This document shows positions 12,974 through 35,775 of a stretch of 45,074 bases of DNA, in pieces. Where the stretch lies: positions 1 through 45,074 of the forward strand of contig JBHEMM010000019.1 in assembly GCA_046262595.1 (NCBI GenBank). Reading direction: 5' to 3'. The DNA comes from Vulcanimicrobiaceae bacterium. GTDB taxonomy: Bacteria > Vulcanimicrobiota > Vulcanimicrobiia > Vulcanimicrobiales > Vulcanimicrobiaceae. Position numbers and translations under genes: made by a program. The notes under the pieces were generated by a model. That model was given only the letters and a program-made list of their open reading frames with translations, ran no database searches and was not told the origin of the DNA. Each line of letters opens with the position of its first letter. The stretch's first letter is position 1.

Positions 12974-14553
12974 CAGGCGACCGCCTCGGGCGCCCGGTAA
13001 ACGCCGAACACTTCGCGCAGCACGTTGCAAACTTCCCCGAGCGTTGCGCCGGCGTCGACGGCTTCGATGAAATGCGGCATCAGGTTCTCGCCCCCGCGCG
13101 CGGCATCTCGAACGCAGGAAAGCCGGTCCAGCACGAGCGCGTTCTCCCGGTTTGCGCGGAAAGCGATGACGCGATCCACTTGCTCCTGTTCGACGGCATC
13201 TTCCACGCGCTGCAGCGGTAGAGCGCTCTGTTCGCTGCCCGGCTCGGCAAAGCGGTTCACGCCTACGACCACTTGGCGCCCCCGTTCGATGTCCTGCTGC
13301 GCGCGGTATGCCGAGTCGGCAATGCGCGATTGCATCCAGCCGCTCTCGATTGCCGCAATGCTGCCGCCGAGATCGTCGACTTCGGCGATGAGCGCGCTTG
13401 CGCGGTCGATCAAGCCGTTCGTCAGCGACTCGACGTAATACGATCCGGCAAGCGGATCCGCGACCTGAGCGACGCCGCTCTCGTATCCGATGATCTGCTG
13501 CGTGCGCAGCGCGACCTTTGCGGCTTGCGCCGTGGGAAGAGCGAGCGCCTCGTCTTTGCCGTTCGTGTGCAGCGACTGCGTGCCGCCCAGCACCGCCGCC
13601 AATGCCTGCAGCGTGACCCGCACGACGTTGTTGTCGGGCTCTTGAGCGGTTAGCGTTGAGCCGGCCGTTTGCGTATGAAAGCGAAGCATGTGCGAGCGCG
13701 GATCTTTGCATTTGAACTCGTCGCGCGTGATGTGAGCCCAAAGATACCGCGCCGCGCGAAACTTCGCCACCTCTTCGAAGAGATCGTTGTGCGCATTCCA
13801 AAAAAACGAGAGGCGCGGCGCTATCCGGTCCGGATCGATCCCGGCCTCGCGGGCGGCGCGCAGATACGCTTTGCCGTTGGAAAGTGTGAACGCCAGTTCT
13901 TCGAGCGCCGTGGACCCTGCTTCGCGGATGTGGTACCCTGAGATCGAAATCGTGTTCCATTGCGGCACGTGCTGGGCGCAGAACGCCATAACGTCCGTCA
14001 CCAAGCGCATCGAGGGCGCCGGAGGATAGATGTAGGTGCCCCGTGCGACATATTCTTTGAGGACGTCGTTTTGCGTCGTGCCGCCGAGCTTCTCGAACGC
14101 GATGCCGCGCCGCCGCGCGACTGCGAGCAGCATCGCAAGCAGAATCGCCGCGGGCGCGTTAATCGTCATGGAAACGGTCACGCGATCCAGCGGGATGTTC
14201 TCGAACAGCGTTTCCATATCGTCGATCGTATCGATCGCTACGCCGACCTTGCCCACTTCGCCGCGCGCGAGCGGCGCATCCGAGTCGTGTCCGAGTTGCG
14301 TCGGCAAGTCAAACGCAACGGACAGCCCCGTGGTGCCTTGTTCGAGCAGGTACCGGTAGCGCGCGTTCGACTGCGTCGCCGTCGCGAAGCCGGCGTATTG
14401 GCGCATCGTCCAAAGCCGGCCGCGGTACATATCTTTGCGGATGCCCCGCGTGTACGGAAAAGCGCCCGGGAGGCCGGCTTCGTGCTGCGGACCTTCAATC
14501 TGCGCGTACACGGGCTTGACGGGAACGCCGCCCGGATTTTCGCCGCCGGTCAT
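12973..14553 (-). CDS. Methylmalonyl-CoA mutase, stand-alone substrate-binding large subunit (no B12-binding domain)
   Basis: [14 protein letters not shown] (Tyr typical of MCM), [26 protein letters not shown]; no DxHxxG motif. Confidence 0.92.
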
Positions 14554-30398: not shown

Positions 30399-30407
30399 CG
30401 GGGCCGC

Positions 30408-30462
30408 TTGATGACTCCTTGATGGCAGAGGAGCGTGATTTTTGATGACATTTTTATGGCCG
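30408..30462. promoter_or_regulatory. Tandem operator-like repeats TTGATGAC-N6-ATGGC upstream of the WYL gene
   Basis: TTGATGACtccttgATGGC (30408-30426) and TTGATGACatttttATGGC (30442-30460); pseudo-palindromic TGACW-N6-TGGCM. Confidence 0.55.
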
Positions 30463-30479
30463 GGGACCGGCGCATAGTG

Positions 30480-30491
30480 CCACAATTGTGG
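30480..30491. promoter_or_regulatory. Perfect palindrome CCACAATTGTGG overlapping a putative extended -10 (TGcCACAAT) of a leaderless WYL transcript
   Basis: 12-bp palindrome ending just before ATG 30493; no Shine-Dalgarno. Confidence 0.5.
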
Positions 30492-30492
30492 T

Positions 30493-31488
30493 ATGGAACG
30501 CACGAACGAGCCGAAGATTGTGTTGCTGGTCCGGCTGCTCAACGCGATTGACGAAGGCCGCTTTTCGTTCGAAGAACTTAAAGACCGCATTGCCGAGGGA
30601 GAACACAAGCCGAGCACGCGCAGCCTGCGCCGCTATTTGGCAGTGCTTGCGGACGCGGGCTTCCCGTGGTACTTCGATCGCGCCACCAACACGTACCGGT
30701 TTACCGAAGGTTACAGCCTCAAACGCCTGGAGCTCAACAGCAGCGAACTGTTCGGTCTGGTCGCGCTGCGCGCCATCAGCGCCAGTTTGAAGGGCGCCAT
30801 CGGCACGTACGTTGACGAAGTGACCGCCAAGATCGTTGGCTCGAGCGGCAGCGGGGCGAAGGAACGGTTGCAGGCGCCCTCGCCGGTCGCGTTCCGCCTG
30901 AGCGAGATCGCGCTGGATGTGCAGGGAGAACAGATATTCAGCCGTCTCTCCTCGGCCGAACGCAGTTCGCGCAGTGTGCGGTTCCAATACCAGGACAAAG
31001 AAGGCAATACGTCCACGCGCACGGCCGACCCCTACGGCTTTGTCGTGGGCGGCGGACGCGTGTACTGCGTGGCGCACGATCGCGACCGGCGCGGCATGCG
31101 GACGTTCGCGGTCGACAACATGACCGACCTCACGGTGCTGGCGCAGACGTTTACCAAGCCGCAAAATTTCAGCGTCGAAGACTTTGCCTCGAGCTCGATC
31201 AGCGGCGTGCTGCACAGTTCGCAAACCGCGGAAGTGCGCGTGCGGTTCGCACCGCGCGTCGCGAAGGCGGCAATCGCCGCGCGCGTCGTGGCGGATCGCG
31301 CCGTGAGCCGATCGGCCGACGGTTCGGTCGAGATAACGTACACCGTCGCGGACGTTGACGAACTGACGCGCTGGGTTTTGGGTTGGGGCGCACAGGCCGA
31401 GATCGTGGCGCCGGCGGAAGCACGCGCCAAAGTCCAGATGCTCATCTCCGAGATCGCGACGAAGTACGAACTTCCGGTCTCGCGCTAA
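30493..31488 (+). CDS. HTH-WYL-WCX transcriptional regulator (YafY/PafB/DriD-like) with a non-canonical WYL motif
   Basis: N-terminal wHTH (STRSLRRYLAVL...GFP), WYL core VRFQY...RTADPYG...VYCVAHD...RTFAVDNM, WCX end WVLGWG...EIVAP. Confidence 0.9.
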   Translation: MERTNEPKIVLLVRLLNAIDEGRFSFEELKDRIAEGEHKPSTRSLRRYLAVLADAGFPWYFDRATNTYRFTEGYSLKRLELNSSELFGLVALRAISASLKGAIGTYVDEVTAKIVGSSGSGAKERLQAPSPVAFRLSEIALDVQGEQIFSRLSSAERSSRSVRFQYQDKEGNTSTRTADPYGFVVGGGRVYCVAHDRDRRGMRTFAVDNMTDLTVLAQTFTKPQNFSVEDFASSSISGVLHSSQTAEVRVRFAPRVAKAAIAARVVADRAVSRSADGSVEITYTVADVDELTRWVLGWGAQAEIVAPAEARAKVQMLISEIATKYELPVSR

Positions 31489-31500
31489 ACGGACATACAT

Positions 31501-31535
31501 CAAAAACCCCGATGACTTTTACGTCACCGGGGTTT
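31501..31535 (-). terminator. Intrinsic terminator of ncRNA copy 1 (may also weakly terminate the convergent WYL gene)
   Basis: 13-bp stem AAACCCCGGUGAC/GUCAUCGGGGUUU running into U5; the single A-C mismatch on + is a G.U pair on -. Confidence 0.8.
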
Positions 31536-31697
31536 GAACGTATTCGCCGGTTTGCGCCTGTCAGAATTCCGGTAAAAGAAATCGACTGACGCCGCCGTAC
31601 GTTTGGCCGGCTCACTCGGGACCGCGGCTTTCACCGCTGTCCGTCAACATGTTCCGGTTGCGGCTTTTACGTTTGCCGCCCTTCAATCGCTTGAAGT
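31501..31697 (-). ncRNA. Putative structured ncRNA, copy 1 (~197 nt, family not recognised)
   Basis: Own promoter and terminator; collinear conserved blocks and compensatory stems shared with copy 2; no conserved ORF. Confidence 0.75.
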
Positions 31698-31703
31698 TCT
31701 TGC

Positions 31704-31732
31704 ATGGTATCATCCGGAAAATCACTTTGCAA
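31704..31732 (-). promoter_or_regulatory. Sigma70-type promoter of ncRNA copy 1
   Basis: TTGCAA (31732-31727), 17-bp spacer, TG-a-TACCAT (-10 at 31709-31704). Confidence 0.75.
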
Positions 31733-31852
31733 GAGCGCGATGCAGCGACTCACAGCATATGCACAAAAACTTTCAGTTGTTCGCCGTTTGTGCACTCGGC
31801 GGAGCGCGCTCCTCAATTCGCGATTACTCACACGTTGTGCACGCAGGTGCAT

Positions 31853-31890
31853 AAAAAAACAGAAGCCCCGAATGTTCATCCGGAGCTTCC
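31853..31890 (-). terminator. Intrinsic terminator of ncRNA copy 2
   Basis: Stem GGAAGCUCCGGAU/AUUCGGGGCUUCU followed by G-U7; three A-C mismatches on + are G.U pairs on -. Confidence 0.85.
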
Positions 31891-32053
31891 GGCGTATGTC
31901 TTTCTCGCTCGTGCCTGTTTGGCTCCGGTGAAGAAACCCTACTGACCACCGCTTGAAAGTCCGGCCGTTTCACTCGTATCGCCGTCATGCGGCTGCATCG
32001 TCAACATGGCCCGGCCGCGACGACACGTTCGCCGCACTTCGTTTCATCGAAGT
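31853..32053 (-). ncRNA. Putative structured ncRNA, copy 2 (~201 nt, paralog of copy 1)
   Basis: Same block order as copy 1: ACUUC hairpin, GCGGC hairpin, CCGG, CAUGUUGACG, CGAGUGA, GUCAGU, ACCGGA, ACAGGCRC, AUACG, terminator. Confidence 0.75.
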
Positions 32054-32059
32054 GTCTGA

Positions 32060-32088
32060 ATGGTAGCACCGTACAAATGTCGTAGCAA
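32060..32088 (-). promoter_or_regulatory. Sigma70-type promoter of ncRNA copy 2
   Basis: TTGCTA (32088-32083), 17-bp spacer, TG-c-TACCAT (-10 at 32065-32060). Confidence 0.75.
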
Positions 32089-32140
32089 GTAGCCGGGTGC
32101 CGTTTCCACCGCATTTCCACAAGAAAGACGCGTTATTCAC

Positions 32141-32572
32141 ATGGTTATACACCTGCTTGCTCTGTTGCTCGCTCAAAGCATGTTCGCCGGTCTTCCTGTC
32201 GACGGTATCCGATGCGATTCGATGGAAGGTGCGCTCGAACACATCCACGCGCATTTGAAAATTACGGATGGCGGCCGCGCGCTGGAAATCCCCTCGGGCA
32301 TCGGGATTCCGCAGGGCGGCCAGTGCCTGTACTGGCTGCATACGCATTCGTCCGACGGCCTCGTGCACATCGAGTCGCCGCTGAAGAAGACGTTTAGGCT
32401 GGGGCAATTCTTCGACATCTGGGGGGAGCCGCTGAGCCGCACGCAGGCCGCAGGAGCGCATGCGTCGCGAGGCCACGCGCTGCGCGTGACCGTCAACGGA
32501 AAAGCCTGGAAAGGCGACCCGCGCACCATTCCGTTACGTGACCATGAGGAGATCGTCATCAACGGCTCATAA
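32141..32572 (+). CDS. Secreted hypothetical protein with His-rich putative metal-binding motifs
   Basis: Signal peptide, HIHAHL, IP-x-GIG, CLYWLHTH-x2-DG-x2-HIES, LGQFFDIWG. Confidence 0.75.
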   Translation: MVIHLLALLLAQSMFAGLPVDGIRCDSMEGALEHIHAHLKITDGGRALEIPSGIGIPQGGQCLYWLHTHSSDGLVHIESPLKKTFRLGQFFDIWGEPLSRTQAAGAHASRGHALRVTVNGKAWKGDPRTIPLRDHEEIVINGS

Positions 32573-32581
32573 GGTATCCGC

Positions 32582-34126
32582 ATGGCAACTACCGCCGCCG
32601 CCATCGAACTCGACGGCAAACACCTCACCCTGCAGGCGATCCGCGCCATCGCTCAAGACGGCGCAACCGTCGCGATCACCGCCGGCGCGCGAGCACGCGT
32701 TGCCGCGGCGCGCGCGCTGGTCGACGAAAAATTCGGTTTAGGCGATGCGATTTACGGCGTGACGACCGGCTTCGGCCGCTTGGCGAACATTCGGGTCGAA
32801 CCGCACGATGCAAACCTCCTCCAGCTCAACCTCGTGCGCAGCCACGCCGCCGGCACGGGCGAGCCGCTGAGCATTCCGCATGTCCGCGCCGCGGGCGTCC
32901 TGCGCGCTAGTTCGCTGGCGGCCGGTCACTCGGGGATCCGCGAGAGCACCCTCGATCTGCTCGTCGGGCTGCTCAACCGGGGCGTCACGCCCGTGGTTCC
33001 GCGCCAGGGATCCGTCGGCGCCAGCGGCGATCTGGCGCCCCTGGCGCACATGACGTTGACGCTTATCGGCGAGGGCGAAGCATTTTATCAAAGTGAGCGC
33101 ATGCCGAGCGCCGTTGCGCTGCAGCGCGCGGGCCTGCAGCCGATCGAGCTGGGTGCAAAAGAAGGACTGGCGCTCGTAAACGGTACTGAGGTGATGACCG
33201 GCATCGCCGCCTTGTGCCAGCTGCGCGCCGAACGCCTTTTGGCGAGCGCCGACGTGATCGGCGCCATGTCGCTCGAAGCGTTTTTAGGAACGGACCGCGT
33301 GTTCGACCGGCGCATCAACGCACTGCGTCCGCATCCGGGTCAAGCACGCGTCGCCGACAATCTTCGCGCATTGTTGAGCGGTTCTCAAATTATCGAATCG
33401 CACCGCGAATGCGGACGCGTGCAAGATCCGTATTCGTACCGCTGCATTCCCGTGGTGCATGGCACCGTGCGCGACGCCGCGGCGCATGCGCGCCGCGTCA
33501 TCGAAATTGAGGCAATCTCCGTTACCGATAACCCGCTGGTTTTCCCGGAAGACGGCGAATTTTTGAGCGGCGGCAACTTCCACGGCCAGCCCATCGCGCT
33601 CGCATCCGATCTGTTGAAAATTGCGCTTGCGGAACTGGCCGGTATCAGCGAACGGCGTCTCTATCTGCTGCTCAATGCGGAAGAGCGCGGCCTGCCGCTG
33701 TTTCTCACGGGACGCTCGGGCTTGCAGTCCGGCTTGATGATCGTGCAGTACACCTCGGCGGCACTCGTCTCGGAAAATAAAGGCCTGGCATGGCCGAACA
33801 GCGTCGATTCGATTCCCACCTCGGCCGGCCAAGAGGATCATGTGAGCATGGGCATGACGGCGGCGGTTCATTTGGACCGCGTGCTGGAGAACGTCGAAGG
33901 CTCGTTGGCCTGCGAGCTGCTCGGTGCGCTCGTTGCGACGGATTTTCGGCGTCCGCTCAAATCGGGCGCAGGAACGCAGGCCGCGTTCGACGTGGCGCGC
34001 GAACGCATTGCGCCCTGGAGCGACGACCGCATTCCGGCCCCGGATATCGAAGCCGCGCGAATGCTCATTCGTTCCGGCGCGATCGCACAGGCCGCGGAGT
34101 CGGCGATCGGAACGGAGCTCGTATGA
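32582..34126 (+). CDS. hutH: Histidine ammonia-lyase
   Basis: [19 protein letters not shown] (MIO-forming ASG), [31 protein letters not shown]. Confidence 0.96.
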
Positions 34127-35775
34127 TTGCCAAACCTCGCGCGGTGCGCGCGCCGCACGGCGCGCATCTGAGCTGCCAAGGCTGGCCGCAAGAAGCGGCG
34201 ATGCGCATGCTGATGAACAATTTGGATCCGGACGTTGCCGAACGTCCCGACGACTTGGTCGTGTACGGCGGTAACGGCCGCGCAGCACGCTCGTGGGACG
34301 CGTATGAGGCGATTATACGCACGCTGCGGCGCTTGCAGAACGACGAGACGCTGATCGTGCAAAGCGGCAAGCCGGTTGCAGTGTGGAAGACGCACGCGCG
34401 CGCGCCGCGCGTGCTCATCGCCAATTCGAATCTGGTGCCGAAATGGGCGGACTGGTCGATCTTCCGCGAACTCGAAGCGAACGGCCTCACGATGTACGGC
34501 CAGATGACGGCGGGATCGTGGATCTACATCGGATCGCAAGGCATCGTGCAGGGAACGTACGAGACGTTTGCGGAGCTCGCGCGCCAGCACTACGGCGGCT
34601 CGCTCAAAGGACGCGTTGCGCTCACTGCCGGTTGCGGCGGCATGGGCGGCGCGCAGCCGCTGGCGATCACGATGAACGAAGGCATTTGCCTGATCGTGGA
34701 CGTCGATCGCTCGCGTCTGGACCGCCGCGTTGAATTGCGTTATCTGGATAAAGTCGCGGACTCGCGCGAAGAAGCGCTGCGCGAAGTGCACGCCGCTCGC
34801 CGCGAAGGGCGTTCCGTTTCGATCGGATATGAAGGCAACGCCGGCGATGAGTTCTTGGCGCTCCATGCCGCCGGATTGCGTCCTGATGCCGTGACGGATC
34901 AAACCTCGTCGCACGACATGCTCAACGGCTACGTTCCCGCCGGCATGAGCCTGCAAGAGTGCGCCGCGCTGCGCGCGCAAGAGCCGGAGGAGTACGAGCG
35001 CCGCGCGTATGAGACGGTCGCGCGCCACGTGCGCGGCATGCTGGCATTTCTTAAAGACGGTGCGGTCGTTTTCGACTACGGCAACAATATTCGCGCGATG
35101 GCTCAGCGTGCCGGCGTGCAGAACGCGTTCGATTTCCCCGGCTTCGTACCCGCTTTCATCCGTCCGCTCTTTTGCAAAGGCAGCGGTCCGTTCCGCTTTG
35201 CAGCGCTCTCGGGCCATCCCCAGGACATCGCGCGGTGCGACCGCGAGCTGCTTGAGCTATTCCCGGACGACACGCACTTGCAACGTTGGATCACCATGGC
35301 GCAGGAACGCATCGCTTTCCAAGGACTGCCGGCGCGCATCTGCTGGCTCGGCTACGGCGACCGCGCGAAGGCGGGATTGCGTTTCAACGAACTGGTGCGC
35401 TCGGGCGAGCTCCGCGCGCCGATCGTCATCGGACGCGACCATCTGGACACGGGAAGCGTCGCATCGCCGTACCGCGAAACCGAAGCGATGAAAGACGGCA
35501 GCGACGCGATCGCGGATTGGCCGCTGCTCAACGCGCTGCTCAACACCGCTGCAGGTGCCCATTGGGTTTCGATCCACCACGGCGGGGGCGTCGGCATCGG
35601 CTACAGCACGCACGCCGGAATGGTGGTCGTTGCCGACGGGTCGGAAGATGCGCGCGAACGCTTGGAGTGCGTGCTTGCAACGGATTGCGGCATGGGCGTG
35701 GTTCGTCATGCCGATGCCGGCTATGAGATCGCAGTCGAAACGGCGGACGAAAAACACATCGACTGGCGGCTGTGA
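34123..35775 (+). CDS. hutU: Urocanate hydratase
   Basis: MNNLDP-x-[44 protein letters not shown]. Confidence 0.97.

Follow-up and report, generated by a model that had tools for sequence, protein, structure and literature searches.

The contig JBHEMM010000019.1 of a Vulcanimicrobiaceae bacterium (assembly GCA_046262595.1), of which positions 1 to 45,074 of the forward strand were analysed (these 45,074 nucleotides (nt) are referred to as the window), raises the question of what is encoded between a gene for a WYL/WCX-domain regulator and the hut genes. G+C content is 0.51-0.575 over positions 31400-32299 and 0.61-0.70 in the flanks, in agreement with an earlier note on this DNA, which had pointed to the lower G+C content of the region and had read it as two tandem transcription units of about 200 nt. 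Combining predicted folds, covariation across related genomes and the conservation of the upstream DNA, we consider it very probable that these two genes, copies A and B, belong to a new family of independently transcribed, compactly folded, trans-acting structured non-coding RNAs (ncRNAs) that are under the control of a dedicated activator.

Both units are read on the minus strand and each has a conserved promoter and a terminator of its own. The promoter claimed in the earlier note, TTGCWA and TACCAT separated by 17 bp with an extended TG, is present in both copies (common form cTTGC-17-TGnTACCAT), the -10 boxes are offset by 356 bp as had been stated, and all of the ordered sequence blocks that had been described are recovered in a pairwise alignment of the two copies (289 columns, 76% column identity), with indels between the blocks. 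In 87 aligned upstream regions TTG-N19-TAnnAT is conserved together with the TG columns. A sigma-54 promoter is ruled out by our reading of the upstream alignments, which contain no TGGCAC-N5-TTGC arrangement. At the other end of the units, a terminator scan of the minus strand found the terminator of copy B (14 pairs, T7) and missed that of copy A because the T run of the latter lies partly inside the stem. Across the RNA family the terminator helices are 91-98% paired, with double-sided changes in ten of ten pairs. Four plus-strand mismatches in the terminators had been said to become G.U pairs on the minus strand; in our own pairing of the sequence we count one such pair in copy A and three in copy B, and given that each would be an A.C mismatch on the plus strand, the minus strand is fixed. 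Also as claimed, no same-strand gene lies downstream of the pair in the window, the next gene, that of the WYL regulator, being convergent.

The earlier note had proposed a covariance model and a search of related genomes. Such a model (R1) was built from a seed of 11 copies that includes copies A and B, and its consensus fold has 47 pairs, 18 of them with compensatory changes. R1 matches copy A at 31491-31698 with 170.5 bits and copy B at 31850-32054 with 170.3 bits (E about 6e-54 for both); as both copies are in the seed, scores of about 170 bits arise by construction, and independent support for the family comes from 86 further copies in other genomes. Copy A is predicted to fold with -84.7 kcal/mol (z -4.54, none of 200 shuffled sequences being equally stable) and copy B with -79.7 kcal/mol (z -2.65, two of 200).

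For the family as a whole, pairing was counted in 88 copies aligned to R1, using the model pairs together with a pseudoknot proposed from the sequences. In this alignment 93.1% of cells are paired compared with 80.0% in column shuffles, 44 of the 53 pairs have changed on both sides, and none of 500 shuffles attains any of the five measures; when the partners are slid by one to three columns, pairing falls to 28-42%. A separate RNAalifold run on 64 rows gave 30 pairs, 25 of which have compensatory changes. Conservation is thus of the pairing type, as expected from the structural selection that had been suggested for the two copies. The fold begins with a 5' hairpin, P1, in which the stem ACUUC/GAAG is nearly invariant, followed by P2, a 5-bp stem with a loop of about 10 nt, and by P3, a long variable arm closed by CCGG-type pairs, in place of which many genera have a different insert. 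The P4 hairpin contains a conserved internal-loop region, GUCAGU / AAACAGGCG, and a covarying apical stem. Finally, a pseudoknot that encloses P3 and P4 is formed between six P2-loop bases (in most copies ACGUAU) and AUACGU, a few bases 5' of the terminator.

The pseudoknot (alignment columns 58-63 with 335-340) is 86.1% paired and four of its six pairs have changed on both sides. Given that it lies outside the R1 model, the alignment was not fitted to it. In highly diverged copies it is rewritten as AUGGUAG/CUACCGU, AUGAGAG/CUCUCGU or GCGAG/CUCGC. The earlier account was right in calling ncRNAs and understated their structure, in which the pseudoknot had not been recognised. A second element of the fold is more ambiguous. 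A kink-turn consists of a C stem, a 3-nt bulge and tandem G.A pairs on both strands, and P3 of the window copies is kink-turn-like (3-bp stem, GUU, GA / GA, 3-bp stem); this specific form occurs in 42 of 87 copies, with covarying C-stem pairs. Because the loose pattern is found in 62% of shuffled sequences, we treat the kink-turn as a resemblance only. No L7Ae-family protein was found in the organism's own genome, which is 89.7% complete. A role as a CsrA sponge was considered and rejected, as conservation of the P4-loop GGA does not extend across genera.

Several lines of evidence separate these genes from known RNAs and from coding sequence. The earlier note could not assign the copies to a known family and neither could we: at gathering scores the 4227 models of Rfam 15 have no match across the 45-kb window, and a permissive scan of 31350-32250 gave two noise-level matches only, the best being BTnc005 (19 bits, cut-off 174.8) and CC3552 (15.2 bits, cut-off 50). 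ARAGORN found neither a transfer RNA nor a transfer-messenger RNA in 31300-32300. In the own genome and four complete relatives, signal recognition particle (SRP) RNA lies at other loci in all five and RNase P RNA in four of the five, and candidates for 6S RNA (35-46 bits; RF00013 cut-off 46.4) lie at other loci in three of the four complete relatives. Since these RNAs are located elsewhere, copies A and B are not a diverged housekeeping RNA. An identity with 6S RNA was also rejected on structural grounds, the individual folds and the consensus consisting of local hairpins plus the pseudoknot, with no end-paired rod with a central bubble. The scores of the 6S candidates just below the cut-off (45.7, 35.2 and 35.6 bits in genomes G009, G018 and G141) suggest in their own right that the 6S RNA of this phylum is poorly covered by the current Rfam model. 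As to coding potential, the claim that no reading frame is conserved is borne out: each sense frame is free of stops in only 5-8 of 87 copies (antisense frames in 10-18), the longest closed open reading frame (ORF) has a median length of 27 amino acids (aa) across the 87 copies, and column entropy by position modulo three (1.05, 1.16, 1.00) is without 3-base periodicity. In our literature searches, no title or abstract opening linked Eremiobacterota to riboswitches or dealt with an ncRNA of this phylum.

The distribution of the RNA was determined with R1 in all wide searches, a narrow model by which diverged members are missed. A BLAST search with copy A retrieved relatives from 4 of 40 other genomes and is insensitive, as copy A fails to retrieve copy B even in the own genome; the loci found in this way have tandem A-like and B-like copies in the same order, and in one other genus a triple array. 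In the own genome (2.4 Mb) copies A and B are the only R1 matches. R1 is positive in 94 of 151 genomes of the bacterial family and in 45 of 78 genera, mostly with one to three copies each; five of the 94 genomes are unpublished and were set aside afterwards, which leaves 89 published genomes with a match. Across a phylum sample, R1 matched 52 of the 71 genomes from the bacterial family and, among 79 genomes from 20 other families, a single one (23 bits). When a pattern scan of species-representative genomes was followed by R1, the strong matches among the 80 listed of 119 matching stretches name the group in their titles (Candidatus Eremiobacter(ae)ota, Vulcanimicrobiota, Baltobacteraceae, Tumulicola, Aquilonibacter), and a few are titled uncultured bacteria or Acidoferrum/Acidiferrales. 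Five such off-label genomes were checked and each has a hutH that is 76-78% identical to that of the window and that adjoins the RNA where contig positions were compared; we therefore read the taxon labels as doubtful rather than as evidence of a second phylum. The RNA family is confined to one order of Eremiobacterota, comprising Baltobacteraceae and at least one sister family. Three records titled Candidatus Acidoferrum or Acidiferrales (L087, L104, L142) carry the RNA together with a hutH that shares 76-78% identity with that of the window, in the manner of Baltobacteraceae genomes, and their bin labels look doubtful.

The best-conserved DNA of the whole unit lies not in the RNA but upstream of the -35 box. 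When the 100 nt upstream of 87 copies were aligned, two direct repeats with an 11-bp period emerged at about -68 to -47, TTGTGGAAAC and then GTTGTGAGT, preceded by TTTC, together with a third related repeat, GTGnATAA, near -88; the array lies about 12 bp upstream of the promoter. A 50-nt position weight matrix (PWM) scores 44.6 at copy A and 44.8 at copy B, and the next-best score in the own genome is 27.2, with no promoter or RNA unit behind it. With a 24-nt core PWM (28.4 at copy B) the outcome is the same, so that in this genome the array is present only at copies A and B. Beyond it, the PWM finds units beside the WYL gene in genomes that were negative in the filtered R1 search and lay outside the training set (scores 49.1, 51.5, 38.5 and 32.7), one of them in the sister family, and unfiltered R1 gives 20-35 bits to several of these units. 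The earlier account had the promoter right and understated the unit, in that this array, its most conserved element, had gone unrecognised. Phased direct repeats just upstream of the -35 box are a classical activator arrangement, and we infer that the array may be the binding site of a dedicated DNA-binding activator. At copy B the array extends over the start codon (32141) of the 143-aa gene, which is divergent and on the plus strand, so that both divergent units must share control DNA. A separate observation concerns contig C31 of the own genome, in which a short run of N (bases masked or unresolved) occurs in coding-like DNA near position 13750, close to the sole other weak PWM match.

The two copies of the window are also members of two old lineages. 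A FastTree tree built on 165 well-occupied columns without the terminator (86 leaves, rooted at the midpoint, after removal of two rows in which fewer than 100 columns were filled) has one clade that holds copy A (33 leaves, 29 genomes, support 0.962) and one that holds copy B (53 leaves, 51 genomes, support 0.857). Each clade spans many genera and both types are present in 20 genomes. The B type is the usual copy at the WYL/hut locus and the A type is its tandem neighbour or is unlinked; same-strand tandem arrays were collated by hand in 17 of the 89 published genomes with matches. Given that both clades span genera, the pair in the window is an old and maintained duplication rather than a recent one. 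Thus, of the diverged duplication proposed previously the paralogy stands and the local duplication does not, as the copies belong to two ancient clades. Two arrangements of RNA copies are recorded here as such. In genome G001 (L013, L018) a third RNA copy in opposite orientation directly follows the WYL gene, an insertion of about 2.7 kb precedes the usual tandem pair, and the WYL match is split over two frames, which suggests that this WYL gene is frameshifted. In genome G048 (L078/L217) two identical inverted RNA copies lie 1.4 kb apart near a contig end and flank two partial mirror-image WYL matches, which reflects either an inverted duplication or an assembly artefact.

The positions of the RNA genes, of their control and structural elements and of the neighbouring genes are collected in Table 1.

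Table 1. Features of the RNA gene pair and its surroundings in the window (positions as counted from the first nucleotide of the window).
Feature	Position	Strand	Description and basis
ncRNA gene, copy A (paralog clade I)	31502-31698	minus	about 197 nt, predicted start to U tract; fold, R1 covariance-model match
Copy A promoter	31704-31732	minus	TTGCAA, 17-nt spacer, TGaTACCAT; sequence reading and conserved columns
Copy A promoter elements	-35 31727-31732; extended TG 31711-31712; -10 TACCAT 31704-31709	minus	
Copy A upstream repeat array	31742-31791	minus	50-nt PWM
Copy A pseudoknot 5' strand	31667-31672	minus	P2 loop (ACGUAA); pairs with 31538-31542
Copy A pseudoknot 3' strand	31538-31542	minus	UACGU, a few bases 5' of terminator; alignment helix and sequence reading
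Copy A intrinsic terminator	31502-31535	minus	13-pair stem, 6-nt loop, U5 (31502-31506); predicted fold
ncRNA gene, copy B (paralog clade II)	31853-32054	minus	about 202 nt; fold, R1 covariance-model match
Copy B promoter	32060-32088	minus	TTGCTA, 17-nt spacer, TGcTACCAT; sequence reading and conserved columns
Copy B promoter elements	-35 32083-32088; extended TG 32067-32068; -10 TACCAT 32060-32065	minus	
Copy B upstream repeat array	32098-32147	minus	50-nt and 24-nt PWM
Copy B pseudoknot 5' strand	32023-32027	minus	P2 loop; pairs with 31893-31897 including one G.U
Copy B pseudoknot 3' strand	31893-31897	minus	family-level helix and sequence reading
Copy B intrinsic terminator	31853-31891	minus	14-pair stem, loop of 4, U7 (31853-31859); terminator scan and fold
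WYL/WCX-domain regulator gene	30493-31488	plus	Pfam WYL 6.6e-19, WCX 2.5e-16; convergent with copy A
143-aa gene	32141-32572	plus	signal-peptide-like hydrophobic N terminus; no Pfam/NCBIfam match
hutH	32582-34126	plus	beyond 143-aa gene, followed by hutU and amidohydrolase gene

The order of genes in the window is WYL/WCX, copy A, copy B, the 143-aa gene, hutH, hutU and the amidohydrolase gene, and the order WYL, RNA(s), 143-aa gene, hutH is kept in 27 of 29 loci that were fetched with 1.5-kb flanks, and also in further genera in which the identity of the WYL protein falls to 46-53%. By hand collation, the RNA lies within 2 kb of the WYL ortholog in 77 of the 89 published RNA-positive genomes, and for several of the other 12 the contigs involved are fragmented. 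The WYL ortholog is present in 145 of the 151 genomes of the bacterial family (a tally that includes unpublished genomes) and, in the phylum sample, in 69 of 71 genomes of the bacterial family, in the one genome of the sister family and in none of 78 elsewhere, which is the taxonomic range of the RNA. Unlinked second copies have varying neighbours (TauE, CHAD/CYTH, DoxX, proline dehydrogenase (twice) and GGDEF). Two genomes of one genus (G104/L216 and G016/L221) have their only detected RNA copy in the interval between miaB and mutS, in the same orientation as both genes and about 115 nt before mutS; their WYL ortholog occupies a different locus, at which no adjacent RNA could be detected. Concerning the neighbouring genes themselves, a 158-aa minus-strand ORF (32173-32649) was rejected because the overlapping plus-strand frame of the 143-aa gene is better conserved. 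The longest urocanase ORF (33790-35775, plus strand) overlaps hutH by about 340 nt and its Urocanase_N domain starts at residue 119, and hutU probably begins close to the stop of hutH. At the start of the WYL gene the window has a palindrome, CCACAATTGTGG, that is not conserved in the orthologs.

Based on these data, we suggest that the RNA genes would be read on the minus strand from the extended -10 promoter when a dedicated activator binds the phased direct-repeat array upstream, and that transcription would stop at the intrinsic terminator. The RNA would be made on demand, its synthesis being switched by a specific transcription factor for which the WYL regulator is the leading candidate, and it would act in trans, its three-dimensional fold serving to bind a protein or a small ligand. 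We favor a scaffold over a linear seed because conservation sits in helices and internal loops and because the pseudoknot closes the core; action in trans through the fold is likewise suggested by the two paralog lineages having been kept apart across the order.

A number of points weigh against this model. A simple sigma-70 scan called no promoter at copy A or B, because each hexamer pair matches only eight of the 12 consensus positions, and the promoter call therefore rests on the conservation of TTG-N19-TAnnAT across the 87 upstream regions. Likewise, the expression, start and end of the two RNAs are predictions, and their independent transcription and their ends are deduced from sequence and conservation. 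Coverage is incomplete, in that 57 of the 151 genomes of the bacterial family have no match in the filtered R1 search; some of the R1-negative genomes hold diverged copies and others stay negative. The data would fit a protein-binding RNA, a ligand-binding RNA and a base-pairing small RNA (sRNA) alike. A role in cis is possible at the mutS locus of the one genus. Finally, the linkage of WYL and RNA may be gene order inherited within one order, and the unlinked second copies with their varied neighbours, the upstream repeats of the WYL gene itself, which are unlike the RNA array, and the lack of conservation of the DriD box (PMC10853764) at the RNA promoters all speak against that linkage being functional.

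The same observations bear on a more specific proposal, in which the RNA is the dedicated output of the WYL regulator and perhaps its ligand, with WYL binding the array in response to a nucleic-acid signal. The proximity of the two genes in 77 of 89 genomes, its persistence down to 46-53% protein identity and in a second family, the shared taxonomic range and the confinement of the array to the RNA genes in the own genome, as expected of a local regulator, all speak for it. The closest solved relatives to which the WYL protein aligns, DriD (8tp8) and PafBC (6sj9, 7p5x), are transcription activators with WYL domains that sense single-stranded DNA (PMC10853764). The neighbouring gene product has the WYL and WCX domains of these regulators, and the presumed site is dedicated to one promoter type and found nowhere else in the genome, as in a DriD- or PafBC-type regulon. 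However, the presumed target here is an RNA gene, and the site is an array of direct repeats and not the palindrome ATACGAC-N7-GTCGTAT that DriD binds as a dimer (PMC10853764). A DriD-type site was rejected as a family feature: a TACGAC half-site follows the -35 box in one sub-clade, but neither the second half-site nor the remainder of the RNA family fits the published box. The WYL and RNA genes are, moreover, convergent and not divergent, three of the six WYL-negative genomes of the bacterial family are still RNA-positive (one of the three is unpublished and one is 71% complete), and conserved synteny in a single order says little about function. With these points in mind, we regard this proposal as tentative and doubtful.

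The region upstream of the WYL gene was considered in this context. It contains two 11-bp-phased repeats, TTTTGAKGSC, in the window (30399-30492) and in orthologs (L017-L045), followed by TGGCACAAT only a few bases before the WYL start codon, an arrangement that suggests possible autoregulation of WYL and a leaderless or very-short-leader mRNA. The idea that the autoregulatory site of WYL is the same as the RNA array was rejected, given that these repeats differ from the array and that the array PWM gives no score there.

Alternatively, copies A and B may be classical base-pairing sRNAs, in which an unpaired conserved stretch pairs with mRNAs, e.g. of the adjacent hut genes and nitrogen catabolism, and in which the helices serve stability and the binding of a chaperone. 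Both genes are solitary and end in a Rho-independent terminator with a U tail, and tandem paralogs that share upstream sites are typical of regulated sRNA pairs; PrrF1/2 and OmrA/B are regulated tandem pairs of this kind. In addition, copy B is divergent from the 143-aa gene/hutH operon and its array overlaps the start of that operon. However, most of the invariant nucleotides are in helices, internal loops or the pseudoknot rather than in an accessible linear seed, an RNA of this length (about 200 nt), with its five helices and pseudoknot, is more elaborate than is usual for sRNAs that act through a seed, and the unlinked second copies have unrelated neighbours. We consider seed-type action of these RNAs rather unlikely.

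A stronger version of the connection to WYL is speculative and we give it a small chance. In this version the RNA would carry out a response controlled by WYL: the RNA genes would be the only genomic targets of the regulator, and the RNA would be catalytic or capture a ligand or protein, with possible feedback onto the WYL domain. It is very unlikely that the copies are cis-regulatory leaders, i.e. tandem riboswitch-like elements with terminators that serve as expression platforms for a downstream gene. The 3' strand of the pseudoknot does immediately adjoin the terminator, and in two genomes a copy lies upstream of mutS on the same strand; but as the pseudoknot strand abuts the terminator stem without overlap, no alternative pairing is evident, in the window, as at the large majority of loci, the RNA is followed by the convergent WYL gene or by a further copy that has a promoter of its own, and every tandem copy is preceded by a separate promoter and upstream array. 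Lastly, small-protein genes, for which the region offers ORFs of 54-70 aa, and a mobile or defence remnant such as a retron or a transposon guide RNA, suggested by WYL regulators often accompanying defence islands (PMC11662680), can be dismissed almost entirely, given that no sense frame is open in more than eight of 87 copies and 3-base periodicity is lacking, that the chromosomal position is stable across the order amid housekeeping neighbours, and that no reverse transcriptase, transposase or nuclease gene adjoins the RNA in the window or at the loci examined.

Returning to the favored model of a structured, trans-acting RNA under a dedicated activator, the RNA can be compared with known systems. 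It is most reminiscent of the raiA motif RNA, an orphan bacterial ncRNA with a complex fold that was found by comparative genomics and that is also about 200 nt long, has its own promoter and terminator, several helices and a pseudoknot, is restricted in its lineages and has neighbours that are uninformative on function. It differs in matching no Rfam model and, by description, in its helices and invariant nucleotides; in contrast to the raiA motif RNA, it occurs in Eremiobacterota and has an upstream repeat array and two old paralog lineages. The RNA family is previously undescribed and well supported, and its regulatory signature is unusually clear. Orphan structured ncRNAs restricted to one lineage are already familiar as a kind, so that the RNA family is not categorically new. 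With 6S RNA (RF00013), of which some bacteria keep two paralogs, it shares a similar length and a housekeeping-like stand-alone gene; unlike in 6S RNA, the 5' and 3' ends form no rod with a central bubble. The pairs PrrF1/PrrF2 and OmrA/OmrB similarly consist of two diverged head-to-tail copies, each with its own promoter and terminator, and with shared regulatory sites. Their members are shorter and use linear seeds together with Hfq, whereas the RNA described here is conserved structurally, with a pseudoknot, and its paralog lineages split before the genera did. EutX and Rli55 are trans-acting sRNAs that bear a riboswitch, and the RNA resembles them in being a stand-alone sRNA with a compact pseudoknotted core of the ligand-sensor kind; it differs in that the Rfam scan recognised no known aptamer in it.

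The Eremiobacterota (WPS-2) are abundant in peat, tundra and desert soils and are known almost only from metagenome bins. In these organisms the control region of the RNA genes is better conserved than the RNA itself, and two paralog lineages have been kept across the order. The size of the RNA, its pseudoknot, the maintenance of both paralogs and the conserved control region together suggest an important and regulated function. A seed alignment for a new family model and a promoter architecture that can be tested are now in hand, and the locus raises the hypothesis that a WYL-type sensor regulator is linked to an RNA output. Should it turn out to bind a ligand or protein, the RNA would be one of the few large orphan RNAs known from bacteria. 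If, on the other hand, it is the effector of a WYL-controlled response, this would be the first WYL regulon with a structured RNA as its product, and a new functional class of RNA in a phylum with almost no cultured members.

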